Virus record (IMG/VR): IMGVR_UViG_3300020112_001619
Source: a virus
Length of the DNA stretch: 64,000 bases
Reading direction: 5' to 3' (one strand)
Under the pieces are notes generated by a model that was not told the DNA's origin, did not search any database, and saw only the letters and a program-made list of their open reading frames with translations. The position numbers were made by a program, and so were the translations under genes. Below, piece by piece: positions 1,996 to 50,024 of this stretch. Every line of letters starts with the position of its first letter. Position 1 is the first letter of the stretch.

Positions 1996-3927
1996 ATGGC
2001 TAGAAAGAAAGCTGAAGAAACCAGAGTACCTGAAGTTAATCAGGATCCATACGCTGAACAGAAAAAAACATTAGAAGATTGCGAACGCATTCTTCATGAA
2101 TTTTATAAATGTGCTATCATACGTCCTACAGGATTCGGTAAGACATTTTTATTAACATCTTTAATCAATCGTTATTCAAAAGTCTTGTACCTATACCCTG
2201 CACAAGTTATTCGTAACACGGTTGTCGATACGTATTACAATTCTATGTATTCTGATGAATTGGAAGACTATATCGACGAAAATGGTGATGTGATTGATCC
2301 AGAAACTATCGATGCTTTGAAAGAAATTTCTAAAATCGAAAATTGTGATCTGATGACATATTCTAAGCTGATTCGTTTAGCAAACGAAGATATTGAAGCT
2401 ATGGATTATGATCTTATCATTATGGATGAATGTCATCGTATTGGTGGACGTAGAACAAAATATGCTGTTGAAGTATTAATGCGTTCTCATACAGATACAC
2501 GATTTGTAGGTGCGACAGCAACCCCTACAAGAATGGATAATTTTGATGTAGTGTCTTATTTCTTTGATGATCGATGCACATACACCTATACATTATTTAA
2601 CGCAATAGAAGATGGTCTTTTACAAAAACCTAATTATTGTTTTTGTACTGAAAATCCTAGAAAGGATTTGGAAGACGCAGCTAAAGAAGCCTGTGAAGAT
2701 GTAAAAGATCCTGAAATTGTAAAGATTTTGGATAGACATGCATTTGAGATTTCAAAGTTGAATGGTATGCCACACATCATTGAAACTGTATGCAAAGACT
2801 ACGTCGAAAACACATCATATATGAAGTTTATCGTATTCTTTACATCAATTAAGCACATGAAAGATCGATTTGATGATGTAAAAGAATGGTTCCACGAAGC
2901 ATACCCAAAGCACAAAATTGTTGAACATCGTATCAGCAGTGCTAACAAGACAGAAGCTTCTAATGTTGATTTACTTGATGATATCCTACCACAGTCAAAA
3001 ACAATTGATTTAATTGCATGTATTGATATGCTTAATGTAGGTTATCATGTAAATAACTTGACCGGAATTATTATGTATCGTAAAACACAGAGCTCTACAA
3101 TCTTTATTCAGCAGTTAGGTAGAGCATTATCTGCAGGAGCAAATAATTCAGCTATCGTATTTGATGTTGTTGACAATCTGCATGTAAAAGCAGCATATAA
3201 CATCAAGCAGATTCCAAAAAGAACATCTCCAAATAAAACAACAACATTAATATCAGCAAATAGCAATCTTGATAAAACAATTGTTGATGAAATCGATGGT
3301 AAAACACTTGTTGAAAATCCAATTGCTTTGAGAATTGATAGAAATGGCGTTGTTTGGAATACAGATGATGAAAATGAAGCACCAATTAAAACTGATTTAC
3401 ATCTTGATAAGAAAACTGGTCGTATCGTTGATGCACACGGTAATGTAACAAACAAAATGATTGTTCCAGGAACAGACCAGGTTGTAGATATGTGTGATGT
3501 ATCGAAAAATAACTGTAATCAGTTTGATGACAAATGTATTAATATGGTTGGTTATATGGCAACATATAGAGAAATCATTGCAAAAGCTGTAGCTGAACCT
3601 TTAACACAGCGTTGTAAGTACGCATTAGAACTTCATTTTAGAAGCTGGTGTTATGCTAATAACATTCCATATCCAATTAGTGATTCAGAACTCACTGCTA
3701 TGTATAACAAAACAAAAAATGAGTTCTATAAAGATTTCTTGAGAATTATCAGAATCAACAAGATTCCATATAATCTTCAGGATGCTCAGGCTCTTTTACA
3801 AATTGGTAATGGTGATGGTCAGGTTCCACTTAGTATTTGTGCTTCAGCAAGAAATGTATCAATTGAACAGATCTTGAGAGAGTTCAACATACCAAACGAA
3901 CTTACAGATAATAGAAAAGCTGTATAA
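1996..3927 (+). CDS. SF2 DEAD/DEAH-box-like helicase; N-terminal domain is paralogous to that of the 46827 helicase-sigma fusion
   Basis: Motif I RPTGFGKT, motif II IIMDECH, motif III GATATPTR. AGGAGG ribosome-binding site. Confidence 0.7.
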   Translation: MARKKAEETRVPEVNQDPYAEQKKTLEDCERILHEFYKCAIIRPTGFGKTFLLTSLINRYSKVLYLYPAQVIRNTVVDTYYNSMYSDELEDYIDENGDVIDPETIDALKEISKIENCDLMTYSKLIRLANEDIEAMDYDLIIMDECHRIGGRRTKYAVEVLMRSHTDTRFVGATATPTRMDNFDVVSYFFDDRCTYTYTLFNAIEDGLLQKPNYCFCTENPRKDLEDAAKEACEDVKDPEIVKILDRHAFEISKLNGMPHIIETVCKDYVENTSYMKFIVFFTSIKHMKDRFDDVKEWFHEAYPKHKIVEHRISSANKTEASNVDLLDDILPQSKTIDLIACIDMLNVGYHVNNLTGIIMYRKTQSSTIFIQQLGRALSAGANNSAIVFDVVDNLHVKAAYNIKQIPKRTSPNKTTTLISANSNLDKTIVDEIDGKTLVENPIALRIDRNGVVWNTDDENEAPIKTDLHLDKKTGRIVDAHGNVTNKMIVPGTDQVVDMCDVSKNNCNQFDDKCINMVGYMATYREIIAKAVAEPLTQRCKYALELHFRSWCYANNIPYPISDSELTAMYNKTKNEFYKDFLRIIRINKIPYNLQDAQALLQIGNGDGQVPLSICASARNVSIEQILREFNIPNELTDNRKAV

Positions 3928-17541: not shown

Positions 17542-19365
17542 ATGCCAAAAATTGCATGTACCGACCATTTAGGTAATGAATTTAAAAGTATTCAGAGTAT
17601 GTGCGATTATTGGCATATATCTCTAACAACTTATTCAAAACGAAAAAAACTTGGTTATTCTTTAGAAGATTGTTTAAATCACAAAAAATTATCAAAAGCA
17701 AAACCTGCTTTTGATCATCTAGGTAATAAATTTATATCAATAGATGCTATGTGTGATCATTATCACATTTCACGTTCAACATTTGAAAACCGCTTAGCTA
17801 GACATTGGCCATTATGTGAAGCTCTTACTAAAGAAAGATACAATAATTATTCTAAAGATAAAATATTGGATCATAAAGGTCAAGTTTTTGCTACTAAAGA
17901 TCAGTTAGCAAGTGCTTACGGTATATCAAGAATGACATTAGATGCCAGATTACGTAAAGGTATGAGTTTAGAAGAAGCTTTAACAACGCCTTTAAGAACC
18001 CACGGCTATACTGATCATTTAGGGAATTATTTTAAAAATCAGCATGAAATGGCTGAATTTTGGCATATTAATGAATCAACACTTGCTTTAAGACTTCGTA
18101 AAGGATTGTCTATAGAAAAAGCTCTTGAGGTTGTATCAATCGAAGTTACTGATCATAAGGGTATAACTTATCATTCTATGACTGCTATGTGTGATGCTTA
18201 CGAAATTTCACGATCAACAGTTGAACGAAGATTAGCTAACAGATGGTCACTTGAAGAAGCACTAACTTATCCATCCACAACACATAAAAAATTCAAAGAT
18301 CATTTAGGTAAAGAGTATAAGACTTTTGGATTAATGTGTAAAGCATGGAACATGCCAGATTCAACAGTTCAAAACAGATTATATAAGTTAGGATATTCAC
18401 TAGAAGATGCTTTAACAAAACCAACAAATACTCAAAATACAGTAGGTAAAACTTGTAAAGATCATTTAGGGAACGAATATCAATCAGTAGCAACTATGTG
18501 TTGTAATTATGGCTTACCTAGAAACGTATTTCATAGGAGAATAAAAGATAGTTGGGATTTAGAAAAAGCATTAACAACACCACCATCACGAGCAAACGGT
18601 CAAGGTAAAGTTATTTACGATCACAAAAAGAATGCTTATTCATCTGTTGGTGAAATGTGCAAAGCTTATGGAATTGATTTTGCAATGTATGGCTCCCGCA
18701 TTCGTCAAGGATGGTCATTAGAAAAAACACTCACAACGCCGCCTGAAGAAATACAAATAGGTAAAAAAGAATGTGTAGATCACAAAGGAAATCATTTTAA
18801 GTCACAAGCAGAAATGATGCGTTTTTGGGGTGTAACAAAAGATCAACTAAGATCAAGAATTGAGCTTGGCTGGACTTTAGCTGAAATCTTAGAGTCTCCT
18901 GCTCATCAAAGTCATAAAAGACCATGTGTTGACCATCTCGGTAAAAAATGGGCATCAAAAGAAGAAATGCTTGCACATTATGGTGTAAGTGGTCCAATTT
19001 TCAATCGAAGATTAAATGTTATGGGCTTATCATTAGAAGAAGCTTTAACAGGACATTCTCTTCATGCAAATCAGATGACTGATCCTTTAGGAAATTTCTT
19101 TGAATCAGTTTCTGATATGTGCGACGCTTGGGACACACCAACAGCCACATTTTACCATTGGTATAACAAATTATATCCAAACAACTTAAGAATGGCTCTC
19201 GTAAGACCAAAAACAAATTGGTCATATAAAGATGTAAAAATCATTAAAACTATTAATAAAAAGTTCTATGAGGTAATGATAAACAATCACACAGCAATAT
19301 GGACTCAAGAACAAATATGTGATTATTACATTAATAACTTTAAACCACATATCGAACCTAAATAG
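17542..19365 (+). CDS. tandem helix-turn-helix-like (NUMOD1-like) repeat protein, paralog 3 (about 11 repeats; 607 aa)
   Basis: Eleven consecutive units DH(L/K)GNxFxSxxxMCxxYxISRSTxxxRLxxGWSLEEALTxP. Distinct C-terminal domain (IWTQEQICDYY) shared with the 22763 paralog. Stop lies 10 nt upstream of the sigma factor start. Confidence 0.65.
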   Translation: MPKIACTDHLGNEFKSIQSMCDYWHISLTTYSKRKKLGYSLEDCLNHKKLSKAKPAFDHLGNKFISIDAMCDHYHISRSTFENRLARHWPLCEALTKERYNNYSKDKILDHKGQVFATKDQLASAYGISRMTLDARLRKGMSLEEALTTPLRTHGYTDHLGNYFKNQHEMAEFWHINESTLALRLRKGLSIEKALEVVSIEVTDHKGITYHSMTAMCDAYEISRSTVERRLANRWSLEEALTYPSTTHKKFKDHLGKEYKTFGLMCKAWNMPDSTVQNRLYKLGYSLEDALTKPTNTQNTVGKTCKDHLGNEYQSVATMCCNYGLPRNVFHRRIKDSWDLEKALTTPPSRANGQGKVIYDHKKNAYSSVGEMCKAYGIDFAMYGSRIRQGWSLEKTLTTPPEEIQIGKKECVDHKGNHFKSQAEMMRFWGVTKDQLRSRIELGWTLAEILESPAHQSHKRPCVDHLGKKWASKEEMLAHYGVSGPIFNRRLNVMGLSLEEALTGHSLHANQMTDPLGNFFESVSDMCDAWDTPTATFYHWYNKLYPNNLRMALVRPKTNWSYKDVKIIKTINKKFYEVMINNHTAIWTQEQICDYYINNFKPHIEPK

Positions 19366-19375
19366 GAGAAATCTT

Positions 19376-20530
19376 ATGAATACAACAACGAAAAATAAGA
19401 CAAAACAAACTAAAAATACATCATTGATTGATGATCCATTAGATTCTTCTATTTCATCATCTGATACATTAGATGAAGAACCTGAAGATGCAGACGTTGA
19501 ACCAGATATGGCTGATCTTGAAAGTATTGACGATTCACCTGATGCAGAGGCAGATGTTGCAAATTTAATAGCTTTATATGAAGCAAGCGACAAAGCATTA
19601 GATCCAGTAACACAATACTTAAGAGAAATTGGTACAATACCTCTTCTTTCAAAAGAAGATGAACAAATTTTAGGTAAACAAATAAGTGATCTAAAAGATG
19701 CAATTGCCGAACGTGATGAAATTTTAGAAAAACCTAAATTAACAAAAAAAGATGAAAAGAGATTAGAAAAGTTAAAAGTAACAATTTCAGAATGCACAAT
19801 TGCTAAAAACAAATTATGCGAATCAAATCTGAAATTAGTTGTTAGTATCGCAAAACGATATAATTTCAGATCGTTATCTGAATTTCTAGACATCATACAA
19901 GAAGGTAATTTAGGTCTTATCAAAGCAAGTGAAAAATTTGACTATACAAGAGGATTCAAATTTAGTACATATGCAACCTGGTGGATAAGACAAAGCATCA
20001 CAAGATCTATGGCTGAAACAGGAAGACTTATCAGATTACCTGTTCATATATCTGAAGATATCAATAGAATCAAAAGAGCGAAACGCAATATATTAGCCAA
20101 GACTAATAAAGAAGCTACAATTGAAGATATTGCAGCAGAAGTCAATTTACCTATTGATAAAGTAAAAGACCTTATTAGACTTGAACAGGAACCTATGTCA
20201 CTAAATATGACCGTAGGTGAAGACAATGATTCTACAGTAGGCGATTTTATACCTGATGATACATTGCAAACACCTGAAGAAAAAATGGCAGAACAAAATA
20301 TTCATGATGTGTTATTTGATGTATTCAAACAAGCAAAATTATCAGATAAAGAAATTGACATTATTTGTAGAAGAAACGGTATCGACCGACCTGATAAACA
20401 AACACTTGAAGAAATTGGCAAAGATTATAATATCACCAGAGAACGAGTGCGACAAATAGAAGCCAAAGTCGTTAAAAAATTGAGACATCCAAAATATGCA
20501 AAAATATTAAAAGAATTACTTGAACCGTAA
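19376..20530 (+). CDS. RNA polymerase sigma-70 family factor (primary-like, regions 1.2-4)
   Basis: Region 1.2 YLREIGTIPLLSKEDE. Region 2 DIIQEGNLGLIKASEKFDYTRGFKFSTYATWWIRQSI. Region 4.2 TLEEIGKDYNITRERVRQIEAKVVKKLRHP. ATG at 19376 with AGGAGA ribosome-binding site (ORF track start 19319 rejected). Confidence 0.85.
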   Translation: MNTTTKNKTKQTKNTSLIDDPLDSSISSSDTLDEEPEDADVEPDMADLESIDDSPDAEADVANLIALYEASDKALDPVTQYLREIGTIPLLSKEDEQILGKQISDLKDAIAERDEILEKPKLTKKDEKRLEKLKVTISECTIAKNKLCESNLKLVVSIAKRYNFRSLSEFLDIIQEGNLGLIKASEKFDYTRGFKFSTYATWWIRQSITRSMAETGRLIRLPVHISEDINRIKRAKRNILAKTNKEATIEDIAAEVNLPIDKVKDLIRLEQEPMSLNMTVGEDNDSTVGDFIPDDTLQTPEEKMAEQNIHDVLFDVFKQAKLSDKEIDIICRRNGIDRPDKQTLEEIGKDYNITRERVRQIEAKVVKKLRHPKYAKILKELLEP

Positions 20531-22744: not shown

Positions 22745-22762
22745 AAAAAGGGATGATGTAGT

Positions 22763-23905
22763 ATGACACCACATACAGCAAAACAACATGAAGACCATTT
22801 AGGTAATGTATATCCATCTTTTGCAGACATGTGTAAAGCATATAATAAACCTAGCAATACTGTAAGAAACAGACTTGATAGAAATTGGACATTAGAGCAA
22901 GCATTAACAATTGATAATAAAAATACAGCTGTTAAAGTTAAACCTATCAAAATATGGACTGATCATTTAGGTAATGAATTTCCAAGTGTTCGAGCTATGG
23001 CTGAACATTATGGGATTACTGAAAAAATATTTTGGTCAAGAAAAAGAATACTAAATTGGCCACTAGAAAAAATCTTGACAACACCAATTCAAGATATGGA
23101 CGCTCCGGCAAATGCCATACCAATTGTTTGTAATGGTATTGAATTTAAATCAGTAAATGCATTATGTAAATACTATTGTATACCAAGAACAACTTTTAAA
23201 TTAAGGTTACAACAAGGATATACACCAGATGAAGCCGTAAATATTAAACCGAAAAAAACAAAAGGTTTGGTAAAAACAAAAATAACAGATCCCTGGGGAA
23301 AAGAATTTCCATCTTTGGCTGCATTATGTAAAGAATATCATGTCACTAAAGATTTAGTGAGATCACGATTAGATTTAGGCTGGACTATGGAAAAAATTTT
23401 AACAAATCCTCAAGTCATAGATCCACACAAACCATGTATCGGACCTGACGGAAAACAATACGATGGTTTTAAAATTATGGCAGAATCTTTTGGATTATCT
23501 GAATCAACACTCAGAGGTCGATTAGCTCAAGGATATTCATTAGAAGATGCTATTTATAATTGGGAAAATAACATATTTCATCCTCAAACAGATCATCTTG
23601 GGAATAAATTTAATGCTACAGCTGATATGATGCTTTACTGGAATATTTCAAATAGTTCATATTGGGCTTATATGAAAAGACGAAATATTGTAAATCCAAC
23701 AGATAAAGATAAAGCAAAAGTATTAGACGTTATCAAGCCAAAAAAGAAATTTGCAGATATTACAATTGTAAAAAAAGTTGCAAAAAATTATTATGAGATA
23801 TGTAAAGATAATAAAAATTATATTTGGTCACATGACCAAATATGGAATTATTATCGAAGCACTATCAATATAGTATTTGAGAAAGGAGACTTATGCAATA
23901 CGTAA
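22763..23905 (+). CDS. tandem helix-turn-helix-like (NUMOD1-like) repeat protein, paralog 4 (about 7 repeats)
   Basis: Repeats DHLGNxxPSxxxMCKxYxxxxxTxxxRLxxxWTLEQALT. C-terminal NYIWSHDQIWNYY is related to the 17542 paralog. Confidence 0.6.
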   Translation: MTPHTAKQHEDHLGNVYPSFADMCKAYNKPSNTVRNRLDRNWTLEQALTIDNKNTAVKVKPIKIWTDHLGNEFPSVRAMAEHYGITEKIFWSRKRILNWPLEKILTTPIQDMDAPANAIPIVCNGIEFKSVNALCKYYCIPRTTFKLRLQQGYTPDEAVNIKPKKTKGLVKTKITDPWGKEFPSLAALCKEYHVTKDLVRSRLDLGWTMEKILTNPQVIDPHKPCIGPDGKQYDGFKIMAESFGLSESTLRGRLAQGYSLEDAIYNWENNIFHPQTDHLGNKFNATADMMLYWNISNSSYWAYMKRRNIVNPTDKDKAKVLDVIKPKKKFADITIVKKVAKNYYEICKDNKNYIWSHDQIWNYYRSTINIVFEKGDLCNT

Positions 23906-28037: not shown

Positions 28038-29417
28038 ATGATTGAACCATTAGCTTCTATGATGCGACCACAAACTTTAGACGAAGTATTTGGTCAAGAA
28101 CACATTTTATCTTCTGGCAGATTGCTTAGAAGAATGATTGAGGCCGACATATTGTCATCAATTATTTTGTATGGTCCACCAGGTACCGGTAAAACTACAA
28201 TTGCTACAATAATTGCTAACACAACTAATTGTGAATTTGAAGCAATTAATGCAACAACAGCTGGCAAAGCTGATATGGTAAAAATAACGGACAAAGCAAT
28301 CAAAAATCTAAAAGAGAACAATAAACGAACAATTATGTTCATCGATGAAATACATAGATTCAACAAAGCACAGCAGGATTATCTATTACCATTTGTCGAA
28401 AAAGGTATCGTTATTCTCATTGGTGCTACAACCGAAAATCCATATTTTGAAATTAATGGTGCATTGTTATCAAGATCTAAGATTTTTGAATTACATCCAT
28501 TGGACAAATCAGCTATGAGCCAAATTATAGACAGAGCAATTTTGAAACTAAACATAGAAGCAAAAAATATAAATATTGCTTATGATATTGTATTAACACC
28601 AGATGCCAAAGATTTCTTTATCAATATTGCAGATGGTGATGCAAGACAGATTTTAAATGCTCTCGATCTAGCATACCAAACAACTGAATATGATGACGCC
28701 GGTATTATGACGATCAACTTAGAAGTTGCTGAAGAATGTATTCAGAAAAAAATCAAACAATATGATAAAAATGGTGACAACCATTATGATTCTATATCAG
28801 CATATATTGAATCTATCAAACATTCTGAAGTAGACGCAGCACTTTACTATTTGGCAAGAATGCTCGATAGAGGTGAAGATCCGAAATATATAGCACGACA
28901 ATTAATTAAGATTGCATCAAGAGATATTGGAACTGCTGATCCATATGCTTTAACATTATGCGTGAGCACATTTTTAGCAGTAGAACGAGTAGGTATGCCT
29001 GACTGTAAATTCGGTCTTGCTGAAGCCACTGTTTATACATCACTCGTTCCAAAATCTAACACAGTAACATCTGCGTTAGAACTTGCAATGGAAGATGCTT
29101 CAAATCTATCTAACATTGAGATACCAACAACTCTTAAAGATGAATCTTACAAATCAGCATGGAAATTAGGTCACGGTGGCGTATCTGATGTATTTGCATC
29201 ACCTATTAATTACGATGGCTTTGAATGTATGCCTGAAGATTTAGTAGGTAAACGATACTATTATCCAAGTGATTTAGGTAAAGAAATCGACATGAAAAAG
29301 TACAATGATTGGAGATTAAAAGTAAAAGATGCTGTTAATCAATATATCAGCGAACATCCTGAAGATTTAATCCCACAATCACCGAACAGACCGATTAATC
29401 CAAATACACAAAAATAA
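28038..29417 (+). CDS. rarA: RarA/MgsA AAA+ ATPase, copy 2 (diverged paralog of 10329..11609)
   Basis: MRPQTLDEVFGQEHILSSGRLLRRMI...LYGPPGTGKTT, IMFIDEIHRFNKAQQD, and C-terminal YDKNGDNHYDSISAYIESIKHSEVDAALYYLARM. Confidence 0.85.
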   Translation: MIEPLASMMRPQTLDEVFGQEHILSSGRLLRRMIEADILSSIILYGPPGTGKTTIATIIANTTNCEFEAINATTAGKADMVKITDKAIKNLKENNKRTIMFIDEIHRFNKAQQDYLLPFVEKGIVILIGATTENPYFEINGALLSRSKIFELHPLDKSAMSQIIDRAILKLNIEAKNINIAYDIVLTPDAKDFFINIADGDARQILNALDLAYQTTEYDDAGIMTINLEVAEECIQKKIKQYDKNGDNHYDSISAYIESIKHSEVDAALYYLARMLDRGEDPKYIARQLIKIASRDIGTADPYALTLCVSTFLAVERVGMPDCKFGLAEATVYTSLVPKSNTVTSALELAMEDASNLSNIEIPTTLKDESYKSAWKLGHGGVSDVFASPINYDGFECMPEDLVGKRYYYPSDLGKEIDMKKYNDWRLKVKDAVNQYISEHPEDLIPQSPNRPINPNTQK

Positions 29418-35850: not shown

Positions 35851-35973
35851 TCCATAAATCCAAAAATAAATAATCATTTATAATGGGCATAAACAATGAG
35901 TTTATGTCCATCAATAAGTGATTATTCACTTATATTCAAATATCAAAACCTAAACAAAAAGGAGAAACAGCTT

Positions 35974-37206
35974 ATGTGTATTATTTGTGGTAACAACACA
36001 AAAAATGACTTAAACATTAAAACATATCAGGGAGAAGTATTTAGTATTTGTCCTAGTTGCTTTGAAGGTATTTTAAGACAGCTTACAAAATCAAATATGA
36101 TCGGAATCCCTGTTTATGCTTCTGGTGATGAGGACGATGATTACGAAGATTTCTACTATGAAACAGACGAAGATTTTAAGAATGCACTTAAAAAGCTTAC
36201 TCCAAAGCAGATTAAGGCAATTTTAGATCAGTATGTTATTGGACAGGAAGATGCAAAAACTGTCGTATCTGTAGCAATCTATAATCACTACAAAAGAATC
36301 ATTCATGATAGAACAGATATTCAGAAGTCAAATATCTTAATGGTAGGACCAACTGGCGTAGGTAAGACTGAAATTGCCAGAACTATCGCAAAGATTTTAG
36401 ATGTACCATTCGTAATTGCAGATGCTACTACATTGACAGAAGCAGGTTACGTCGGTGATGATGTTGAAAACATCCTATTAAAGCTTCTTCAGGCCGCCGA
36501 TTTCGATACAGAAGCTGCTGAGCATGGTATCATCTACATAGACGAAATTGATAAAATCGCTCGTAAAGGTGAAAACGTATCAATCACTAGAGATGTATCT
36601 GGTGAAGGTGTACAGCAGGCACTACTTAAACTTATTGAAGGTGCAAAAGTAAACGTGCCAACTCATGCTGGTAGAAAGCATCCTAGAGAAGAATGTGTCG
36701 AGATCGATACATCAAATATCTTATTTATTTGTGGTGGTGCATTTGAATCACTTACAATGGATAAAACAAAACATAATTCTTTAGGTTTTGTGACACCTGA
36801 ATCTGAAGACAAAAAGAAAAAGATCGATGCTAAAGATCTTATGAAACAGGGGCTTATTCCTGAACTTATCGGAAGATTACCTATTGTCGTAAAACTTGAT
36901 GAGTTATCAGAAAATGACTTAAAGCGTATCTTAGTTGAGCCAAAAAATAGCATCTTAAAGCAGTACACTCAGCTCATTGAACTTGATGATGTAAAGCTTA
37001 CAGTTGATGATTCAGCAATTGATTTTATTGCTAATAAGGCATACACAAATGAAACTGGTGCCAGAGGTTTAAAAGCTATCATGGAAGACTTCATGACTGA
37101 AATCATGTTTGAGATTCCAGATGACATGACCGTTGGTGAAATCATTTTAACAGCCAATGAAGATAACACAGAACTTACTTATAAGAGAATTGAAAGAGTA
37201 GCTTAA
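35974..37206 (+). CDS. clpX: ATP-dependent Clp protease ATP-binding subunit ClpX
   Basis: N-terminal C4 zinc finger (CIICGN...CPSCF), Walker [25 protein letters not shown] motif. ATG at 35974 with GGAG ribosome-binding site (track start 35896 rejected). Confidence 0.9.
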
Positions 37207-39208: not shown

Positions 39209-39553
39209 ATGAATCCTGCGATCAGAAAAACAAACAATGCCGATAAAAGCTTATCGATAATAATTGAAAATGATTATTATAAAATAAGTGTTGTATATAC
39301 AGGTAATTATGATGATGATTTAAAAAACAATATGATTAATCAAGACAATATTGGTGTGTATATTATCCCATTTGATAAAAACTATCCTAAAATAAGATGT
39401 GTATATACAAATGTTGATAAACCAATTGATAAAATCATTACAGAAGGGTGTGTAGGCCCTGATACCGTAAATGCAATACATGCAGCTCAGGAAATGTTAA
39501 CATGTACAAAAACAATTATGAAACAATATTTTCCTGATATCTGGACAAATTAA
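39209..39553 (+). CDS. hypothetical protein
   Basis: ATG immediately follows the upstream stop. Confidence 0.4.
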   Translation: MNPAIRKTNNADKSLSIIIENDYYKISVVYTGNYDDDLKNNMINQDNIGVYIIPFDKNYPKIRCVYTNVDKPIDKIITEGCVGPDTVNAIHAAQEMLTCTKTIMKQYFPDIWTN

Positions 39554-39750
39554 AAAAAATCATAAGAGAGGTAACACATTATGGAAAAAATTTGGGGATA
39601 ACTATTATTAACTTAAATTAAAAAAATCATAAGAAAGGTATTACATTATGGAAAAAATTTGGGGATAACTATTATTAACTTAAATTAAAAAAATCATAAG
39701 AAAGGTATTACATTATGGAAGAAATTTGGGGCTAATTATTATTAACTTAA
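39549..39750 (+). repeat. three tandem direct repeats of 67-68 bp abutting the 5' end of the tmRNA gene
   Basis: Copies at 39549-39616, 39617-39683 and 39684-39750. Copy 2 is ATTAAAAAAATCATAAGAAAGGTATTACATTATGGAAAAAATTTGGGGATAACTATTATTAACTTAA. Each holds a Shine-Dalgarno-like GAAAGG plus the mini-ORF ATG GAA (A/G)AA ATT TGG GG(A/C) TAA. Confidence 0.9.
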
Positions 39751-40124
39751 GGGCTTGCAAAGGTTTCGACTGGGTATTATAAGTATCTCAAGCATGTAGA
39801 GGATGATGGACACCTCTTAAATCCGACATCAAAGAATAATCGCTAACGATTATGAAGAGCTCTGCGCAGCCTAGTAGCGCCAGCTAGTGTAAACTAGCCG
39901 TCAACTCATATGAGTATCACCGCTGTATCTCATATGGGCAATAGTAGCGGTTAAGCGATGAGTGAACTGAGATGGAACTCACCGACGAAAACTCCGGCGT
40001 CTTAGTGTGTGTATAGAAGCGTGTTGGTTTGCTAATTACAGGCACTATAAAGGGATAACCAAATAAACATGTAGAAAAAGATATGGAGATATTTAGGACA
40101 GGGGTTCGACTCCCCTCAGGTCCA
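39751..40124 (+). ncRNA. ssrA: tmRNA (SsrA), standard one-piece form; predicted tag peptide ANDYEELCAA
   Basis: 5' GGGCUUG-CAAAG-GUUUCGACUGGG matches the tmRNA 5' consensus. The 3' T-arm AGGGGTTCGACTCCCCT plus CAGGTCC pairs 7/7 with the 5' GGGCTTG (two G-U pairs). Tag reading frame is GCT AAC GAT TAT GAA GAG CTC TGC GCA GCC TAG TAG at 39842-39877, preceded by AATAATC as in the E. coli AAUAGUC resume context. Confidence 0.8.
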
Positions 40125-40216
40125 CTAGCCAAAGTAATTTGGTGAACAATTTTATAAAGTCCATAAGGTCTTTATAGATACTTATGGCATATCCCCCCCC
40201 AATAGAGACAAATATT

Positions 40217-40810: not shown

Positions 40811-40871
40811 GCCGGGTGGTGCTTGTGGGGTGCATACCCACATGAGAGGGGTTCGACTCCCCTAACCCGAA
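40811..40871 (+). ncRNA. D-armless tRNA-like or tmRNA-3'-like element carrying the identical T-arm of the tmRNA
   Basis: AGGGGTTCGACTCCCCT is identical to the tmRNA T-arm. Hairpin TGTGGG-GTGCATA-CCCACA has an anticodon-loop-like GCA. There is only a 5-bp acceptor-like helix CGGGT/ACCCG and no D-arm. Confidence 0.3.
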
Positions 40872-40972: not shown

Positions 40973-43024
40973 ATGGATCCAAATACTAATCATGACGATG
41001 AACTATTAGCATCGTTAACAAAAAGAATTTATCATTTAGAACAGGAAGTTATCAAACTAGGTGGATCACCATATGTTGAAACTGTTGAAAAACCAAAACC
41101 AGAAATAAACAATACTGTTCAAATGCAAAATACACCATATGTTCCAAAACCTGAACCTGTATTAGAAAATATGGTATATGCACAACCAAAACCACAAAAT
41201 ATAACAACACCTAAAACTTCTGTTAAAAAGAATCAGAATATTGAAAATAAAATTGGTAAAAATCTGATGGCAATTATGGCATCAGTTCTTATATTCATAA
41301 GCTTAATACTATTTGGTAGCATCGCATTTATGTATCTATCAAACTTTGCAAAAGCAGGAATTATGTATTTAATCAGTATAGCAATCGCTATATTTGGTAT
41401 TAAAAAGTCACCAAAACGAAATGCTTTACCTGATAAGCAATATAAATACAAAACATTCTATACGTCATTGGCTGCATGCGGTATTGGTGCAACTTATATA
41501 TCAAGTTTAATATCATATTTCATATTTAATATATTTAACTTACCATTATTTATTATTGCAATTATAGCCTGGCTTGTTGCAACAATGATACTTGCTTATA
41601 ATTATTCAAATATTTTTGTATATATTTGCAATATCGGTTTGATCATAGCCACATTATTAATAACTTTCCAATTTGGAAACAGCTTATTCGGATTCATTAT
41701 TTATACAATATGTTTAGTTGCATTGTATATTATAAGACATAGCGATAATTTCAACAAAGATTGTTTTTATTTCATGCAATATCCAATCATGTTCATAATT
41801 TTAACAGCAATCTCTAATGGCTTTATATCATATATCATAATTGCATTTATCACTATTGGTGTATTTATTGCAGCCAATATAATCTATGATATGCAGCCTA
41901 AACACATAACAACAAATATATTAACATTAATACTGAACACTTTTGCAATTATATATTTTGTATCATCTAAAAACACAAAAGTATTTGATACAAAAGAACT
42001 ATTCATATACATTAGTATTATTATGGCAATCACCATAAGTATTGTGTACTATATGAGATATAAAAATAAAATCAAAGCATTACAGTATACAGCTTACGTA
42101 ATTATGTTAGTAATCTCATTAGCCACATTCGCTTCAACAACTGTTTATGATTATGTTGGATTCTTTCCATTTGCAATCCTTATGTTCTTAGGATTCATAA
42201 CAAAAGATGTATATTTAAGAATTGGTGGATATGCTTCATTATTCTTAACATTAAATGCCAGCATATTAAACGAAAACGAATATGCCTTCTATATGGTATG
42301 TATTATGTTTTTAATAGCAGCATATGTACTATCAGTTATCACTAATTACACTTGTGCAGATAAATATGCAATAACAGGGATATTCTTAATTGCAACACTA
42401 TCATTCTTAAATGAAATTGATTGTTCATATATTATAACATTTAGTATATTTGCAATAATTTCAATGATTATGAATACCAAATGGTATCATATGAATTACG
42501 AAACACATAAAGAAGAAATAGCATCAAAAATTATTGGATATGTGTTAAATAGTATATTAATGTTAACAGGTCTTATTGGCATAATTGCTGAAGGATTAAC
42601 ACCATCAATTATCGAACTTTCTATTGTAACGTTGATAACTGTTGTATTATACTGTATTAATACAAAAAGATTATTCAATCTTACATTACCTGAAATGCTC
42701 ATAGGTATATACATATGTTTAAAATTTACGATCCTAATATTAGCAATCTTAATAAGATTTGAAGCAGCATCATTTGTAATTTCAATTGTAGGAATATTAA
42801 TAGCGATTGTATGTATCATATTAGGTTTCAAAGTGAAACATAAATCATTTCGATTATACGGCCTCATTGTATCATTAATATCAGTGGCAAAACTGATGTT
42901 ATTTGATATTCAATATAGTTCAACATTACTTAGACCTGTTGGATTTTTCATTGCTGGAATTCTATGTTTCGCTATCAGTTTTACATATTCAAAACTAGAA
43001 AAGCAATCGAATAAAGGAGACTAA
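40973..43024 (+). CDS. large polytopic membrane protein (about 20 TM helices; DUF2339-like architecture)
   Basis: About 110-aa soluble N-terminus with coiled-coil-like segment, then continuous hydrophobic helices along 570 aa. Confidence 0.5.
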   Translation: MDPNTNHDDELLASLTKRIYHLEQEVIKLGGSPYVETVEKPKPEINNTVQMQNTPYVPKPEPVLENMVYAQPKPQNITTPKTSVKKNQNIENKIGKNLMAIMASVLIFISLILFGSIAFMYLSNFAKAGIMYLISIAIAIFGIKKSPKRNALPDKQYKYKTFYTSLAACGIGATYISSLISYFIFNIFNLPLFIIAIIAWLVATMILAYNYSNIFVYICNIGLIIATLLITFQFGNSLFGFIIYTICLVALYIIRHSDNFNKDCFYFMQYPIMFIILTAISNGFISYIIIAFITIGVFIAANIIYDMQPKHITTNILTLILNTFAIIYFVSSKNTKVFDTKELFIYISIIMAITISIVYYMRYKNKIKALQYTAYVIMLVISLATFASTTVYDYVGFFPFAILMFLGFITKDVYLRIGGYASLFLTLNASILNENEYAFYMVCIMFLIAAYVLSVITNYTCADKYAITGIFLIATLSFLNEIDCSYIITFSIFAIISMIMNTKWYHMNYETHKEEIASKIIGYVLNSILMLTGLIGIIAEGLTPSIIELSIVTLITVVLYCINTKRLFNLTLPEMLIGIYICLKFTILILAILIRFEAASFVISIVGILIAIVCIILGFKVKHKSFRLYGLIVSLISVAKLMLFDIQYSSTLLRPVGFFIAGILCFAISFTYSKLEKQSNKGD

Positions 43025-43033
43025 TAATCAACT

Positions 43034-43597
43034 ATGGGACAAAAACAACATCATAAATATAAGATAAAAATTCCACATATAAATACAAAAATCAAAGTGA
43101 AAAAATCATCAATGATGATATTTTCATATGTATCACACACAATTGTTAACTTTTTTGCAAATTATGGATATTTGATATTAAGTGTTGCAATAGCATACAT
43201 CATTTTTAAATATTCAAATCAACCAGCAACTGAATCAGCAAATGCGAGTCATAAAGCATACGCAATATTATCTCAGTTACCTTTAGCGAAAGCAATATTT
43301 AATGTGATACCGATAAGAAAATGTGCTCATATGTTTTTGTATTGTATATTAAGTCTAACAGTATTTATGCATTTTAGATTCAAATCTGAAATACCTCATA
43401 TATGGGCTTTACTATCTTGCTTTATATATGCTTGCACTGATGAATTTCATCAATTATTTGTACCTGGTCGAGGAGCAGTAATATCCGACATAGGCTTTGA
43501 CTGTATAGAAGCCTTCATCGGAATCATAACAACATCAATCACATTGCGTTTAATCTATAAATATTTAGAACGTCATGATGATTATATAAATTATTAG
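43034..43597 (+). CDS. VanZ-like membrane protein
   Basis: Four TM helices with ACTDEFHQLFVPGRGAVISDIGFDCIEAFIG resembling the VanZ-family ExxQxFxPGR...D...N/D..G motif. Confidence 0.45.
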   Translation: MGQKQHHKYKIKIPHINTKIKVKKSSMMIFSYVSHTIVNFFANYGYLILSVAIAYIIFKYSNQPATESANASHKAYAILSQLPLAKAIFNVIPIRKCAHMFLYCILSLTVFMHFRFKSEIPHIWALLSCFIYACTDEFHQLFVPGRGAVISDIGFDCIEAFIGIITTSITLRLIYKYLERHDDYINY

Positions 43598-44801: not shown

Positions 44802-44888
44802 AAAATATTGAATCATTTTACAAAGAGCTTATTTTGATAACAAAATAGGCTCTTTATCTATGTGAAAAAATATAGGAGGTATATACAA

Positions 44889-45533
44889 ATGGCCGATTAT
44901 TATGCCGTTGCAATTGGACGAACACCAGGTATTTACAATACTTGGGCTGATTGTGAAGCCCAAACTAAAGGGTTCAAAAATGCAAAATTTAAAAAATTCA
45001 AAAGTTATGATGAAGCTGCCACATTCGTAGGAATACTTGAAAATGAACCTATTGAAAATAAAACAACGGAAACTGTGCATCAAGTAAATAGTGCAACTGA
45101 TGTAAATCTACAGTATCCATACGCTTTTGTTGATGGATCATTTAACTCAACAACAAATACTTTCGGTTATGGCGGTTTCTTAGTTGTAGATGAAACATCT
45201 GAACCAATTATTATTCAGGGTAACGGTGAAGATCCTGAACTTGCATCCATGAGAAATGTAGCTGGCGAAATTTATGGTTCACAAGCTGCTATTAAGAAAG
45301 CTCTTGAATTAGGATTAACTTCATTGCATATTTACTACGATTATATGGGAATTGAGCATTGGGCTGCTGGTACATGGAAACGAAACAAAAGTGGCACAAT
45401 TGCTTACTATGATTATATTCAGAGTATTAAATACAAAATCAAATTATATTTTGTTAAAGTTGCTGCTCATACAGGAATCCCTGGCAATGAAGAAGCTGAC
45501 AGACTCGCTAAACAATCTGTTGGTATTGAATAA
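44889..45533 (+). CDS. rnhA: ribonuclease H1 with N-terminal hybrid-binding domain
   Basis: N-terminal hybrid-binding domain (YYAVAIGRTPGIYNTWADCEAQTKGFKNAKFKKFKSYDEA). Catalytic FVDGSF, E..AA..AL and C-terminal AAHTGIPGNEEADRLAK. ATG at 44889 after AGGAGG. Confidence 0.8.
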   Translation: MADYYAVAIGRTPGIYNTWADCEAQTKGFKNAKFKKFKSYDEAATFVGILENEPIENKTTETVHQVNSATDVNLQYPYAFVDGSFNSTTNTFGYGGFLVVDETSEPIIIQGNGEDPELASMRNVAGEIYGSQAAIKKALELGLTSLHIYYDYMGIEHWAAGTWKRNKSGTIAYYDYIQSIKYKIKLYFVKVAAHTGIPGNEEADRLAKQSVGIE

Positions 45534-45619: not shown

Positions 45620-45997
45620 ATGAAAATTGAAAATGGTATTAAGAAACTTGAACGTGGTGATAAGATTAAAGTACAGAGTATATTAGCAGAAATCGCAACA
45701 TGTCATTATCAGGATTATGATCCAAATAATGATACATTTATTGCAGAATTTTATGACACTAATGGTAATATTAGAAACTGGCATCAAACTTCGGACGGTG
45801 GTGTTGTAATCCCTCGTCCTGAATCAAAAGAAATTTGGGTAGGATTTGAAAAACAGCATGCTGACGATGATGACAGTATTTACAATTTTGATGCTATGAA
45901 AACATTCGATACTGAAAGAGAAGCTATGGACTGGCGAGATAAAAATATTGAGTATCGTGTTTATAAATATTGCGGCTCCGTAAATTTAACAAACTAA
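45620..45997 (+). CDS. hypothetical protein
   Basis: ORF with GGAGGT ribosome-binding site. Confidence 0.4.
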   Translation: MKIENGIKKLERGDKIKVQSILAEIATCHYQDYDPNNDTFIAEFYDTNGNIRNWHQTSDGGVVIPRPESKEIWVGFEKQHADDDDSIYNFDAMKTFDTEREAMDWRDKNIEYRVYKYCGSVNLTN

Positions 45998-46335
45998 TGA
46001 TTGAAAGCACATTAGAAGCATACCTGATTAAAAAATGTAAAGATAATAACATCTTCATATGTAAAAATACAGGTATGAACGGAATGCCTGATCGATTAAT
46101 TCTCAAAAATGGTAAACATTTCTTCATTGAATTGAAAAAACCAGGTGATAAACCAAGAGAATTACAAACAGAAATTATAAAACGCATGGAGAATAAAGGA
46201 GCAATTGTCCATGTGATCGATTCAAAAGAAGGAATTGATGATATCATTGAAGAAATTAATAGAAAGGATAAACGTAAAAAATATGGATATCGTTCAAAAT
46301 TTGATATCAGGGCCAAAGAAGACAATATTCTTTGA
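45997..46335 (+). CDS. VRR-NUC domain nuclease (PD-(D/E)xK)
   Basis: GMPDRLIL...FFIELKKPGDKPRELQTEII...GAIVHVI matches the VRR-NUC GxPD...E.K...Q pattern. ATG overlaps the upstream TAA (TAATG). Confidence 0.55.
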   Translation: MIESTLEAYLIKKCKDNNIFICKNTGMNGMPDRLILKNGKHFFIELKKPGDKPRELQTEIIKRMENKGAIVHVIDSKEGIDDIIEEINRKDKRKKYGYRSKFDIRAKEDNIL

Positions 46336-46804
46336 TCAAGACGGAGTAGTCGCAATTTATGAAAGATGGGCGTATTTACCAGATAAAGCAGGTGTAATGC
46401 CTTTCTTAAAAGAAAGAAATCATTATTTCAGACACTGTGGCATTGACGATTATGCATGTGCATTAGTTAGAGCATGTATTGCTGCAGGTCATGATGTATA
46501 TATTCTTACAAAAATACCACCAGAAACACCATTTTTAGCTGTTGATAAAGTAGATTGGCTTAGAGATAATCTTCCAGAAATTAATGAAGATCATATCATC
46601 ATTGCCACATCTGATAAAGCTGAACTTATAAAAGTTATCACAGAAGTATCATGTCTAAATGAAAATATGATTCTTATTGATGATTATAATCCAAATCTCG
46701 AAGATTGGATTGCTGCAGGTGGTAAAGCAATCAAATACATCAATGGATTAAATAATCCAGACACATTTGATGGTGATAAAATATATCGCCAAATAAAAAA
46801 GTAA
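46283..46804 (+). CDS. HAD-family 5'(3')-deoxyribonucleotidase-like hydrolase
   Basis: HAD motif I FFDQDGVV, later LIDDYNPNLEDW. Start chosen at the ATG before motif I. Overlaps the VRR-NUC gene by about 50 nt. Confidence 0.5.
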   Translation: MDIVQNLISGPKKTIFFDQDGVVAIYERWAYLPDKAGVMPFLKERNHYFRHCGIDDYACALVRACIAAGHDVYILTKIPPETPFLAVDKVDWLRDNLPEINEDHIIIATSDKAELIKVITEVSCLNENMILIDDYNPNLEDWIAAGGKAIKYINGLNNPDTFDGDKIYRQIKK

Positions 46805-46826: not shown

Positions 46827-49607
46827 ATGAGGATAAAAAAATTAGAACATAATGAAAAAACATATGATGATCTAAGACCATATATTCTAAGAAAAGAAAA
46901 TTGTTGCGTTGTAAATCCTTGTGGTTCAGGAAAAAGCACAATTATAGCTTCCATCATTGAAGAATTTTATGAATTAGGTATTATTGTCATCACAAAACAA
47001 GCAAATGCAAAAGCTTATTATTACGAAAAATGCCCAATATTCGAACAACAGAATATACCAGTTATAACATACAATAGATTACATGATCTATATAAAAAAG
47101 ATAAATTAAAGAGCTTGAAAAACATCAAAATCTGTATTTTTGATGAAGCTCATTATATAGGAGCAAATAGTTGGTATGATTCTGTTACTGAATTATTAAA
47201 AATAACAGAAGCTACAGCAATCGGTGTTACAGCAACACCACAACGATACGAAGATCAAGGATCAGATCGATCAATTATTGATTTCTTTTCAGGTAATTCT
47301 GTAGGAAATTATACAGCAAAAGACCTTCAGAGAAAAGGTGTATTTATTGAGCCTGAGTACATTATTACATTGGCATCACTTGATACTGAAATCAATAAAC
47401 GAATTGATAAACTGAATGAAATAGATGATCTTACGGATAAAGAACGTGAAACTTATATAAGTCGATTAAATGAATTACAGGATAACTGGGCTGAAAAAGA
47501 ATGTCCTAAAGTAGTTATGTCAAAAGTATTAGATGATTACATGTATAGACCAAATGGAAATAAAATACTTGTATTTTCTAAAAATATTGAAGCAATTGCT
47601 AAAGACATGAAATATGTTAAAGATATTCTTGAATCAATATATCCTGACAAAAAGATTGGACTATATGAATACACTCATTTTAGCAGCGAATCTGTCTTAC
47701 AAGAATTTTTAACAAATGATACTAACTATATCAACGTTATATTTTCTGTTAATAAAATCTGTGAAACAATTCATATTCCAGATCTAAACGTACTAATATT
47801 TTTAAGAAGTTCTTATTCAAACAGGATCATTACACAACAGGCTGGCCGAGTTAATGATATTAATAATCCATACAAAAGTTTAATTCTCGATATGGTAGAC
47901 AATTTATCAAAATTTGGCAAAAAGAATAATCTTGATTCATTAGAAAATATTCAGAAAACTGTTAAAAAAGAACAGCAAGAAAATAAAACAACTGTACGAT
48001 TAAATCTATCTTATATGTATGGTTCTATTGGGTTGTTTAATAAAATTGACAGTTTAACAAAAAAATATCAGCTATATGATTATATGGGTGCAACAGGTAC
48101 AATCACTCAGTTATGTACTATTTTCAGAAAAGACAAAGATGAAGTTATGAAACTGATCAAAGATAATCAGTTATCAGTGTATGATGCATTAGACACTGTA
48201 CCTAGTCAAAGAAAATGGTCAAATGATATGTTAAATGATGATTCATATGATTTACTTACAAATATGGATTATACATTAACACCTGAAGATAACGAATTAG
48301 TCGAAAAATTTTACCCATACATTCAAGATATTGCAAAAACAAAAAATTGTACAGATGAAGATATTATTGGAAATGCTGCATTATATCTATGTAATATTGC
48401 ACATAAATACAATACTGAAAACATAACAACAAGTCAAAACATGTATTTCAGAAACAGTATTGCTAATTTCATAGTGAGATCTATGCGAAAAATGTATGAT
48501 CATAATGATATGATAGAAGATTCACTATCAGATGTCGTATCATCTGGCGAGTATGTATCAAAATATGCTGAACTTTCGGAATTAAAAGATATCATATTTG
48601 AATTATTAAATACTTTAACTGAAAAAGAACATCGTGTTATTGCTATGAGATTTAATATCTATGGTAATGGACCACAATCATTATTCAGTGCAGGACGTAT
48701 ACTTGGTGATGTATCTAGAGAACGAATAAGACAAATAGAAGCAAAAGCTATACGAAAATTACGACATCCTAGTAGATCAAGAAAATTAAAAGGTTTCTTA
48801 AATGGCGAAGAATTATCAGAAATTGAACCATATACTTATCTAACATATATAGGATCAGAAAATTTACCTGAAGCAAATGCTGAAGTATTCAGATGGATTA
48901 ATGAACATATCAATATGGCTATTTTGAAATACGGTCCTAATTATAAAGAAGAGTTTACCATCGTTCAAAAATCTGATACAAAATGTGAACCTGTTACAGA
49001 AAAAGAGTCAGTAGAATCTTTAAACAAACGCTTAAATAAAGTAGTTCTTAAAACTGCTGAAAAAAGAGTTGGTATTCGTATTAATAGACCAGTTAAATAC
49101 GACAAAATCACAATAAAAAAGTATCGAGGTGATCAATATCAAATTGGAAAGACACAAGCAATTGACAACATACAGTCTGTTACAACATATGAATACATTG
49201 ACGCTATTGACGCCACAGTTGCTTCAACATTATCAAATCTGCTGAATAACAATGAGAATCCTTTCTGGATTCATGACGCATTATTCAAACCTTTTGAAGA
49301 TGTAAAATATAAACATATCTTACATCCTGCTGTAAAAGAGATTTTAAAACAAAATCAAATAATTTCACCTGCATTCTTAATAACAAAGACAAGAGATGAA
49401 ATTCACGAATTATTAACAGTAGGTGCAAGACTTAAAGCGGCTCAATGCTACAAAGTAGATGCTTTATTATCAGATGATGATATTTGGTTTATGAAAAACT
49501 TCGGTGAAATCATAAAAATATTAGAAGGAAGCGTTGAAACATTAGAAGCAATCAAAAGAGAAGCATTATCACTTTTATATGATCAAAACATCGAAATTGT
49601 TTGTTAG
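46827..49607 (+). CDS. fusion protein: SF2 helicase-like N-terminal domain plus sigma-70 region 2/region 4 domains plus about 290-aa unknown C-terminal extension
   Basis: Helicase motifs [26 protein letters not shown] are paralogous to the 1996 protein. Sigma region 2-like [18 protein letters not shown]...[17 protein letters not shown]. Region 4.2 [53 protein letters not shown] nearly matches the RpoD consensus. Confidence 0.7.
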
Positions 49608-49616
49608 GAGAACTAT

Positions 49617-50024
49617 ATGCAGGAACGACAAATTAAACGATATAAAAAGATAACCCCTCAGTCTATGAGGGAGTTATCTGAACGAATTATCAATTACTTT
49701 GATAAAAAAGGTTATTGGTCAGATTGTGCAATTTATGTAGATGGCGAACGCTGGTCATCTGATAATTATGGAAACAGCAACAAAATTGCACAAAAAACTA
49801 AAAAAGATGTTGTATATTATGTAGAGTATGACATTGATGTCAATGATTACTTAAAGTATAATAACCCTAAAGCAATAAGCATCATATTCGATGGTTCACC
49901 TCTTTATATGGAGATATTCAATAATTTTGATATTGTTTGGAACCTATCTGAACGATTTTTAGCACCATACAAATTGTATTTTGAATTAGGTGACCAATGG
50001 AATATGACAGCGTATTCAATTTAA
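49617..50024 (+). CDS. hypothetical protein
   Basis: ORF with AGGAGA ribosome-binding site. Confidence 0.4.
   Translation: MQERQIKRYKKITPQSMRELSERIINYFDKKGYWSDCAIYVDGERWSSDNYGNSNKIAQKTKKDVVYYVEYDIDVNDYLKYNNPKAISIIFDGSPLYMEIFNNFDIVWNLSERFLAPYKLYFELGDQWNMTAYSI

Follow-up and report, generated by a model that had tools for sequence, protein, structure and literature searches.

A family of phage proteins combining an SF2 helicase core, a sigma region 2-like domain and sigma region 4 in one polypeptide

Sigma-70-type initiation is the classic illustration of promoter opening without ATP. To our knowledge, the sole bacterial exception is the unrelated sigma-54, which depends on separate AAA+ activators. 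There, as in the poxvirus early transcription factor VETF, promoter recognition is coupled to an ATPase needed at initiation. The textbook case of a superfamily 2 (SF2) motor attached to the transcription initiation apparatus is XPB, a component of TFIIH, and the SF1/SF2 motors RapA (Swi2/Snf2), HelD and Mfd act on bacterial RNA polymerase. Here we describe a viral protein that brings elements of these systems together. It is encoded by a single open reading frame (ORF), referred to below as the fusion, in IMG/VR virus record IMGVR_UViG_3300020112_001619, from which a stretch of 64,000 nucleotides was analyzed (the window). The fusion extends the sigma-70 family by a new domain architecture: an SF2 helicase, a sigma region 2-like domain and a sigma region 4 reside in one polypeptide.

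A literature search found no paper on a helicase-sigma architecture. A comparative study of jumbo phages reports complete and minimal sigma factors in group 2 and does not mention a helicase fusion (PMC7824862).

One reading frame for helicase and sigma domains

The fusion is an uninterrupted ORF whose product comprises five parts, listed with their boundaries in Table 1. Domain families are detected toward both ends of the protein. Among the PHROGs, phrog_16 (‘DNA helicase’) matches residues 12-432 (1.8e-28) and phrog_351 (‘RNA polymerase sigma factor’) matches residues 495-693 (4.1e-17); the corresponding Pfam matches are given below. An AlphaFold2 model, computed with a 60-sequence alignment as input, is confident for residues 1-660, where the predicted local distance difference test (pLDDT) of most blocks is 85-97. 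An earlier annotation made from the letters of the window alone (the sequence-only reading) had proposed that helicase and sigma domains share this ORF, and this is borne out.

The fusion belongs to a sizeable family. A search of 5.8 billion proteins, clustered at 90% identity, recovered at least 120 clusters with the same layout, a figure that is a lower bound (E values from 0 to 1e-83). The helicase is present in all of them, and Sigma70_r4 follows in the same order in almost all; at 50% identity, at least 44 representative clusters are fusions. Sixty members could be aligned across the junction between helicase and sigma parts, and both the linker and the bridge are conserved there. One relative, P0002, is 53% identical over its full length and syntenic, with RNase H, VRR-NUC, the fusion, a small ORF and thymidylate synthase in the same succession. 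In all seven loci examined in diverged relatives, helicase and sigma parts share a single ORF. An assembly chimera or frameshift joining two genes, in whose favor it can be said only that the window contig stems from one metagenomic assembly (the identical protein P0001, on a JGI contig of 70,115 bp, forms a cluster with one member from one contig), has next to no chance of being correct and is rejected because the fusion recurs in these independent clusters, in the syntenic relative and in all seven loci. The sequence-only reading had proposed looking for a stop or frameshift between the two parts and for the same fusion elsewhere; conservation rules out the former, and the clusters provide the latter.

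Members stem from assemblies of JGI, ENA and Logan and from a few metagenome assemblies at NCBI; the contigs measure 2 kb to 589 kb. A typical member is about 650 amino acids (aa) long, lacks the C-terminal extension and stops roughly 10 residues past sigma region 4 (median tail 10 aa), as sigma factors do. Where context is available, the surrounding genes run in the same direction and are mostly hypothetical; those with an assignment include thymidylate synthase, the ribonucleotide reductase NrdD, clamp-loader-like AAA+ proteins, single-stranded DNA-binding protein (SSB), SNF2 helicase and RNase H. This context is typical of large phages, and the family has so far been seen only on phage-like metagenomic contigs. 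Members also lie on very long contigs (L071, 570 kb; L073, 418 kb) amid co-oriented hypothetical genes, accompanied by a GGDEF/EAL protein, a chemoreceptor, an IS605 TnpB and DNA methyltransferases; these contigs are either megaphages or other replicons.

Reference collections gave a different picture. In 185,579 representative genomes, one per bacterial or archaeal species, 65 pattern matches were obtained and none was confirmed as full-length. None of 50,697 phage GenBank records covers the full protein, and none matches positions 40-60 kb of the window at the DNA level. Likewise, no full-length match was found in 72,556 plasmids, and the viral structures of BFVD include helicase cores only, none with the fusion architecture. 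Among the loci returned by a scan of IMG/VR, only L001 encodes a full-length relative; 68 others are homologues of the helicase alone, at about 20-25% identity. The fusion had been called highly unusual in the sequence-only reading. The protein is nevertheless no one-off. Its family is abundant in metagenomes, carries no annotation, has no member in the reference genomes of cultured phages and bacteria, and marks a lineage of large phages.

Domains of the fusion protein

The N-terminal part has the hallmarks of an SF2 helicase. Motifs I, II, III and VI are present, including the three that the sequence-only reading had quoted, and two RecA-like lobes are formed. Pfam identifies DEAD (1.2e-12, 48.3 bits) and ResIII (2.4e-12, 47.5 bits), both above their cutoffs; Helicase_C is marginal (7.5e-5, 23.4 bits against a cutoff of 23.5). 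The second lobe is confident in the AlphaFold2 model, which matches complete SF2 cores across about 400-470 residues. Within Walker A, G33, G35 and K36 are invariant in a 15-sequence alignment (A4) and at least 90% conserved in the 60-sequence alignment (A1). Foldseek matches of the model in the PDB are generic SF2 translocases (LlaBIII, RIG-I and RIG-I-like proteins, RadD, XPB, HsdR, Snf2). When the single sequence was searched against the PDB, archaeal XPB/Rad25 proteins were the sole solved relatives (6e-6); the family profile retrieved, in order, SauUSI (8e-12), XPB/Rad25 (1.4e-7), Hef, XPBII and RadD. On the basis of these structural and profile matches, the core is assigned by its sequence and fold to the ResIII/XPB-like DNA translocases, with intact catalytic motifs and no specific subfamily.

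Just before Walker A, a cysteine cluster (C26, C27 and C32; residues 26-32, positions 46902-46922) is nearly invariant and is accompanied by a conserved H8-N9. Such a cluster is unusual for SF2 helicases.

The window encodes a second, stand-alone helicase of the same broad kind. Over 420 columns spanning the whole core, it is 23% identical to the fusion helicase (E=7e-14), and both match phrog_16; the paralogy suggested by the sequence-only reading is thereby upheld at the level of distant homology. Its C-terminal part shows no similarity to the sigma module.

The identity of sigma region 4 is unambiguous from sequence. Pfam Sigma70_r4 (PF04545) matches residues 593-647 at 1.5e-11 (44 bits, cutoff 24.1) and was detected in all 27 family members tested. 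The domain aligns with Bacillus subtilis SigA down to the last residues of SigA, HPSRSKRLKDFL, and likewise with the SigA proteins of Staphylococcus aureus and Clostridioides difficile and with Escherichia coli RpoD through their final residues. The likeness of its region 4.2 to the RpoD consensus was already remarked on in the sequence-only reading, and the string quoted there is indeed present. In the recognition helix, R633 is conserved in 53 of 60 members, R635 in 46, Q636 in 52, K640 in 47 and R643 in 48. Roughly half of the 60 members deviate at the equivalents of sigma-70 R584 and E585; the fusion itself has the full RpoD-type set. Two further positions, F/Y609 (57/60) and L/I/M654 (47/60), correspond to F563 and L607 of E. 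coli sigma-70, which we take to contact the beta flap rather than DNA. RpoD models match the fusion only at region 4 (residues 560-660), with scores of 60-82 against cutoffs above 350, and do not class it as a primary sigma factor.

Ahead of region 4 lies a divergent sigma region 2-like domain. The NCBIfam model TIGR02937 (sigma70-ECF, regions 2 and 4; ECF, extracytoplasmic function) aligns from end to end, with residues 489-647 covering profile positions 4-163 of 165. Its cutoff of 42.9 is narrowly missed by the fusion (42.4) and exceeded by the relatives P0051 (45.3) and P0039 (44.4); P0089 and P0023 fall below it. Comparisons with region 4 removed point the same way. When the family segment was compared by hhalign with the full sigma factor of the window, residues 487-531 aligned on regions 2.1-2.2 (E = 0.017, single sequence). 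When the profile was searched against 177,635 PDB sequences, the top entry was a sigma-2 domain (8b3z_A, the SigE N-terminal domain; E = 0.12), and Pro-sigma-K was listed as well. In addition, the family hidden Markov model (HMM) aligns to residues 133-257 of B. subtilis SigA in matching register, at a weak 9.2 bits, and the AlphaFold2 model shows a sigma-2 fold.

A signature of the form I-x-DEDxxQxLY is kept across the family (D510 in 53 of 60 members, E511 in 48, D512 in 56, Q515 in 42, Y518 in 41), followed by a spaced hydrophobic pattern and then an arginine; it resembles ECF-type region 2.1-2.4. Pfam and NCBIfam models find neither region 1.2 nor region 3 in the fusion. Because these regions are missing, the sigma part is assigned to an ECF-like, two-domain type, in which sequence and predicted structure indicate a divergent sigma-2 joined to an RpoD-like sigma-4.

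Between helicase and sigma-2 lies a module that the sequence-only reading did not contain. This bridge combines a beta-hairpin with a helix-turn-helix (HTH)-like element. A profile of residues 395-580 was searched against 1.84 billion protein representatives and showed that the bridge, a unit of about 50 aa, is a mobile repeat: certain metagenomic proteins consist only of 2-12 tandem copies (P0122 has eight, P0123 twelve and P0130 five; P0183 is also a repeat protein). Pfam returns only weak generic HTH matches on these repeat proteins, and no dedicated family.

The same search recovered proteins of about 234-262 aa that consist of bridge, sigma-2 and sigma-4 without a helicase (P0131, P0142, P0150, P0154, P0156, P0158, P0166, P0175, P0177). 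Each begins with a methionine followed at once by the bridge, then the sigma-2-like motif, with sigma-4 at the end. For example, the gene for P0142 (L075, 692-1444) has a stop/start overlap with a preceding DnaQ/RNase T-like exonuclease gene. P0154 (L076, 6001-6705) is encoded close to a Mob_Pre relaxase and a sortase on a contig that resembles a plasmid, and no helicase remnant was found in the 2.2 kb upstream. Since such stand-alone proteins exist, the bridge-sigma2-sigma4 segment is, judged from its sequence relatives, a self-sufficient unit that matches a small sigma factor in size and arrangement. Either the helicase was added to this unit, or the stand-alone forms were born by fission. 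Three mid-length proteins (P0124, P0125, P0139) were considered as new architectures and rejected; they start inside the second helicase lobe and are N-terminally truncated fusions.

Elsewhere in the window, three ORFs (5439-6383, 17542-19365, 22763-23905) encode multi-repeat HTH proteins with phrog_1065 and phrog_3377 repeats (‘HNH endonuclease’-associated) and weak matches to PVL_ORF50, HTH_psq and DUF4250. The bridge HMM matches 22757-23902 weakly (full E 2.4e-8), and the three may be distant relatives of the bridge repeat.

The C-terminal extension is confined to a small sub-clade. Its homologues are clear in P0002 (4e-24) and weak but collinear in P0003 (3e-5); the tail of P0028 is unrelated, and only six of the 60 aligned members have tails of at least 100 aa. 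The AlphaFold2 model has low pLDDT at residues 710-816 and is helical with moderate confidence at 820-920. The sequence-only reading had set aside a further 290 aa of no assigned family; Pfam and PHROG indeed hold no family for it, and the length is 267 aa. A database search with the extension alone gave no matches and is a weak negative, because it missed the parent protein too.

Table 1. Coordinates of the fusion, its parts and other features of the window. Residues refer to the fusion protein.
Feature	Coordinates	Strand	Details
Whole fusion ORF	46827..49607	+	926 aa + stop; ATG start, TAG stop; helicase, bridge HTH, sigma-2-like, sigma-4, extension
SF2 helicase/translocase core, residues 1-365	46827..47921	+	two RecA-like lobes; Pfam, AlphaFold2, Foldseek, profile against PDB
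Motif I/Walker A NPCGSGKS, residues 30-37	46914..46937	+	conserved C26-C27 pair just before
Motif II FDEAHY (DEAH box), residues 105-110	47139..47156	+	D106, E107, H109 invariant in 60 sequences
Motif III GVTATPQR, residues 133-140	47223..47246	+	G133, T135, A136, T137, R140 invariant (60-sequence alignment)
Helical insert in helicase core, residues 185-238	47379-47540	+	AlphaFold2 model
Motif VI with arginine finger, residues 335-343	47829..47855	+	Q337, Q338, G340, R341, N343 invariant; includes QQAGRVN
Bridge module, residues 412-462	48060..48212	+	beta-hairpin ‘YxYxG’ + three helices, HTH-like; AlphaFold2 secondary structure
Sigma region 2-like helical domain, ECF-like, residues 484-560	48276..48506	+	region 2.2-like motif at 48348-48386
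Sigma region 4 (4.1 + 4.2), RpoD/SigA type, residues 586-659	48582..48803	+	recognition helix 48711-48767
C-terminal extension, residues 660-926 (267 aa)	48804..49604	+	only in the window/P0002/P0003 sub-clade
Stand-alone ResIII/phrog_16 helicase	1996..3927	+	distant homologue of the fusion core, no sigma module; Pfam, PHROGs, pairwise comparison
Full sigma-70 family factor of the phage, regions 1.2, 2, 3, 4	19376..20530	+	all above Pfam cutoffs; phrog_351 1.1e-83
Minimal sigma-4-like protein, 80 aa	20597..20839	+	divergent recognition helix; Pfam 21.4 against 24.1 bits; hhalign 94%, E=1e-7
RNase H1, N-terminal hybrid-binding domain (Cauli_VI/HBD)	44862-45533		upstream of fusion
VRR-NUC ORF	45970-46335		overlaps the mechanically called TTG start of the next ORF by ~100 nt
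5'-deoxyribonucleotidase-like ORF	46235-46804		follows VRR-NUC ORF

Possible functions

We tentatively read the fusion as a phage sigma-like factor that would dock on host RNA polymerase and bear its own DNA translocase, an explanation to which we grant somewhat less than an even chance. Under this proposal, the sigma module would bind the host RNA polymerase core, with the sigma-2-like domain on the beta-prime clamp helices and the RpoD-type sigma-4 on the beta flap. Sigma-4, perhaps aided by the bridge HTH, would read -35-like DNA. The tethered ATPase would then translocate along the adjacent duplex, leading to promoter opening or to clearing or remodelling of the template, in a role functionally akin to that of XPB in TFIIH or of the ATPase subunit of the poxvirus early transcription factor. 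We infer RNA polymerase binding, promoter specificity and this role of the ATPase.

The sigma-like factor is preferred because it makes use of every part of the evidence: the intact ATPase, the HTH, the sigma-2-like fold, the constrained sigma-4, the autonomy of the module and the restriction to phage-like contigs. Sequence conservation across the family suggests that one polypeptide has been maintained, and that of motifs I, II, III and VI that the ATPase is competent. Sigma-4 resembles RpoD/SigA to the last residue, where typical members stop much as sigma factors do; its recognition helix and C-terminal tail are under strong constraint, and the two presumed beta-flap positions are likewise kept. 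In addition, the closest solved helicases by sequence are DNA translocases, XPB/Rad25 among them.

Several observations weigh against this preference. The link to RNA polymerase is drawn from homology and a predicted fold, and sigma-2 is its weaker half. Pfam Sigma70_r2 gives no match to the fusion protein at E<=1, and matches only three of 27 family members at that threshold (best 0.01). The sigma region 2-like segment proposed in the sequence-only reading has indirect support, from TIGR02937, hhalign, the SigA register, the PDB profile and the predicted fold. Position 515, a glutamine in most members, is glycine in the fusion, so that sigma-2 is degenerate here, and the aromatic residues with which primary sigma factors melt the -10 element are not conserved in sigma-2, as far as a low-confidence alignment can tell. 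The phage already encodes a complete sigma factor. The fusion does not lie beside transcription genes; its neighbors are RNase H1 with a hybrid-binding domain, a VRR-NUC nuclease, a 5'-deoxyribonucleotidase and thymidylate synthase, a neighborhood of replication, repair and nucleotide metabolism. Furthermore, a scan of 40-56 kb for sigma-70-type promoters found 105 where 116 +/- 11 were expected, hence no enrichment, and intergenic k-mer enrichment yielded only the Shine-Dalgarno sequence ATAGGAG and T/A runs, with no phage promoter motif.

Two rival explanations stay alive because of this replication/repair neighborhood and the degenerate sigma-2 of the window protein. The better survivor, which we consider unlikely, is a helicase for replication or recombination that is targeted to a site. 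The HTH and sigma-4 would act purely in sequence-specific DNA binding and bring the helicase to a defined site such as an origin, without RNA polymerase contact, and sigma-2 would be a helical spacer; the protein might then resemble the origin-binding SF2 helicase UL9 of herpesviruses or the alpha protein of phage P4. The neighbors just listed fit this well, as do the SSB, SNF2 helicase, NrdD and clamp-loader-like AAA+ genes that adjoin relatives. The bridge, as a generic DNA-binding repeat, and the degeneracy of sigma-2 are also in keeping with it. Such a helicase would, however, leave unexplained why the conservation of sigma-4 extends through the C-terminal tail and to the presumed beta-flap positions. 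Nor would it account for the predicted sigma-2 fold with a region 2.2-like motif kept family-wide, or for sigma modules that stand alone and match a sigma factor in size and layout.

Less probable still is a factor that remodels RNA polymerase or assists host takeover. Here, the sigma module would grip the host RNA polymerase core in competition with host sigma-A and would not specify promoters. The motor would strip or recycle the polymerase, remove stalled complexes or R-loops ahead of phage forks, or shut off host transcription, by functional analogy with RapA, HelD, Mfd or T4 UvsW. A host-like sigma-4, with its best matches in Bacillota SigA, suits competition for the beta flap and -35 elements, and a sigma-2 without a conserved -10-melting signature, a nearby RNase H1 and a separate complete phage sigma to serve promoter recognition are all compatible. 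However, the DNA-recognition helix of sigma-4 is strongly conserved, which mere gripping of the polymerase would not require, and sigma modules exist without any motor. Foldseek and the profile search of the PDB also reveal no similarity to RapA, HelD or Mfd past the generic SF2 fold.

The sigma-like factor that we prefer can be taken further, to an ATP-dependent initiation factor of the sigma-70 type, in which the sigma module would set host RNA polymerase at phage promoters and the SF2 translocase would power opening or escape. This specific form we judge doubtful, and the least probable of the functional proposals made here. If true, it would constitute a bacterial-virus counterpart of TFIIH/XPB and the first case of motor-dependent sigma-70-type initiation.

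An intact SF2 motor joined to sigma-2 and sigma-4 would imply direct mechanical coupling of a helicase to RNA polymerase or promoter DNA. According to which reading is correct, the family would offer a new way of opening or clearing promoters, a new remodeller of RNA polymerase for host takeover, or a replication helicase targeted by sigma domains put to a second use. The parts of the fusion are small and soluble-looking, and these hypotheses are directly testable in vitro.

Genomic setting and described systems

The window has about 31% G+C, and nearly all of its genes lie on the + strand. They encode NrdD, two clamp-loader-like proteins, a Dda-like helicase, RNase H1, a VRR-NUC nuclease and thymidylate synthase; the window is a replication and nucleotide-metabolism region of a large phage. 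The ATAGGAG Shine-Dalgarno sequence, the low G+C content and the best sigma-4 matches to Bacillota SigA together suggest a host among the Bacillota. Of the two further region 4 carriers reported in the sequence-only reading, the conventional sigma-70 is confirmed with all of its regions. The 80-aa protein is supported by the hhalign probability and falls short of the Pfam cutoff (Table 1).

A 135-aa ORF immediately downstream of the fusion (49617-50024) has homologues in four of seven related loci, where the position relative to the fusion differs. Pfam contains no family for this ORF and its PHROG matches are weak and of unknown function; no other conserved partner gene was found across the seven loci. 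Upstream, the 5'-deoxyribonucleotidase-like ORF probably starts further downstream than its called TTG, because of the overlap with the VRR-NUC ORF.

The replication region also contains two clamp-loader-like paralogues of phrog_5846 (4.7e-79, 1.9e-71) and a third related AAA+ gene of phrog_4339; the trio lies at 10329-11609, 28038-29417 and 35896-37206. A transfer-messenger RNA (tmRNA) gene is located at 39751-40127 (+) in a gene-free stretch of 1.4 kb, with the tag ANDYEELCAA by ARAGORN and a full-length match to Rfam RF00023 (146.7 bits). Directly upstream of it are three tandem 67-nt repeats (39548-39748) that are 88-100% identical, each holding an AGGT resembling a ribosome-binding site and an ATG mini-ORF. 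The 3' T-arm sequence of the tmRNA recurs once more, at 40844-40863. Just past the tmRNA, 40973-43597 encodes a DUF2339 membrane protein (683 aa) and a VanZ-like protein; GC and AT skew are near zero there, unlike in the remaining window.

Comparison with described systems places the fusion apart from each of them. Membership in a known defence system was considered on account of PADLOC matches, at the level of sigma-4 to MzaA and weakly in the helicase to PbeA and mREase_IV, and was rejected. MzaA, of the MZA anti-phage system (NF041931/PDLC02203), has a sigma-4 match in common with the fusion (77 bits, PADLOC 3e-16), but the score of 77 compares with a cutoff of 800 bits, the match covers only the last ~95 residues, and the fusion family is found on phage-like contigs rather than in defence islands; a literature search on MzaA brought up nothing relevant. 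RapA, HelD and Mfd bind RNA polymerase via other surfaces and lack sigma domains, and no specific similarity to the fusion was detected.

With sigma-54 and its AAA+ bacterial enhancer-binding proteins, the analogy is functional only: the latter are AAA+ rather than SF2 proteins and separate polypeptides, and sigma-54 is unrelated to sigma-70. The same applies to poxvirus VETF (D6 ATPase and A7), in which the ATPase is a separate polypeptide and which has no sequence relationship to the fusion. XPB/Rad25, SauUSI, Hef and RadD are the nearest solved helicases by sequence and fold, and all are ResIII-type SF2 DNA translocases. The likeness to XPB/Rad25 is limited to the generic RecA-like core (about 120 residues, profile positions 21-137), and no sign of shared ancestry beyond SF2 emerged, in a comparison that left aside the XPB-specific DRD, RED and thumb elements.

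Closest on the sigma side are RpoD/SigA and the ECF sigma factors. The fusion shares with RpoD/SigA a region 4 of 38-55% identity, the same RERIRQ recognition helix and the same HPSRS..L..FL tail, and differs from them by its lack of regions 1.2 and 3, a highly divergent region 2 and 267 residues more. Its two-domain plan is like that of the ECF (group 4) sigma factors of TIGR02937, whose cutoff it narrowly misses. Unlike in those factors, its sigma-4 belongs to the RpoD/SigA rather than the ECF (r4_2) type; an anti-sigma partner is not apparent, and the module sits behind a 365-aa helicase and an extra HTH.

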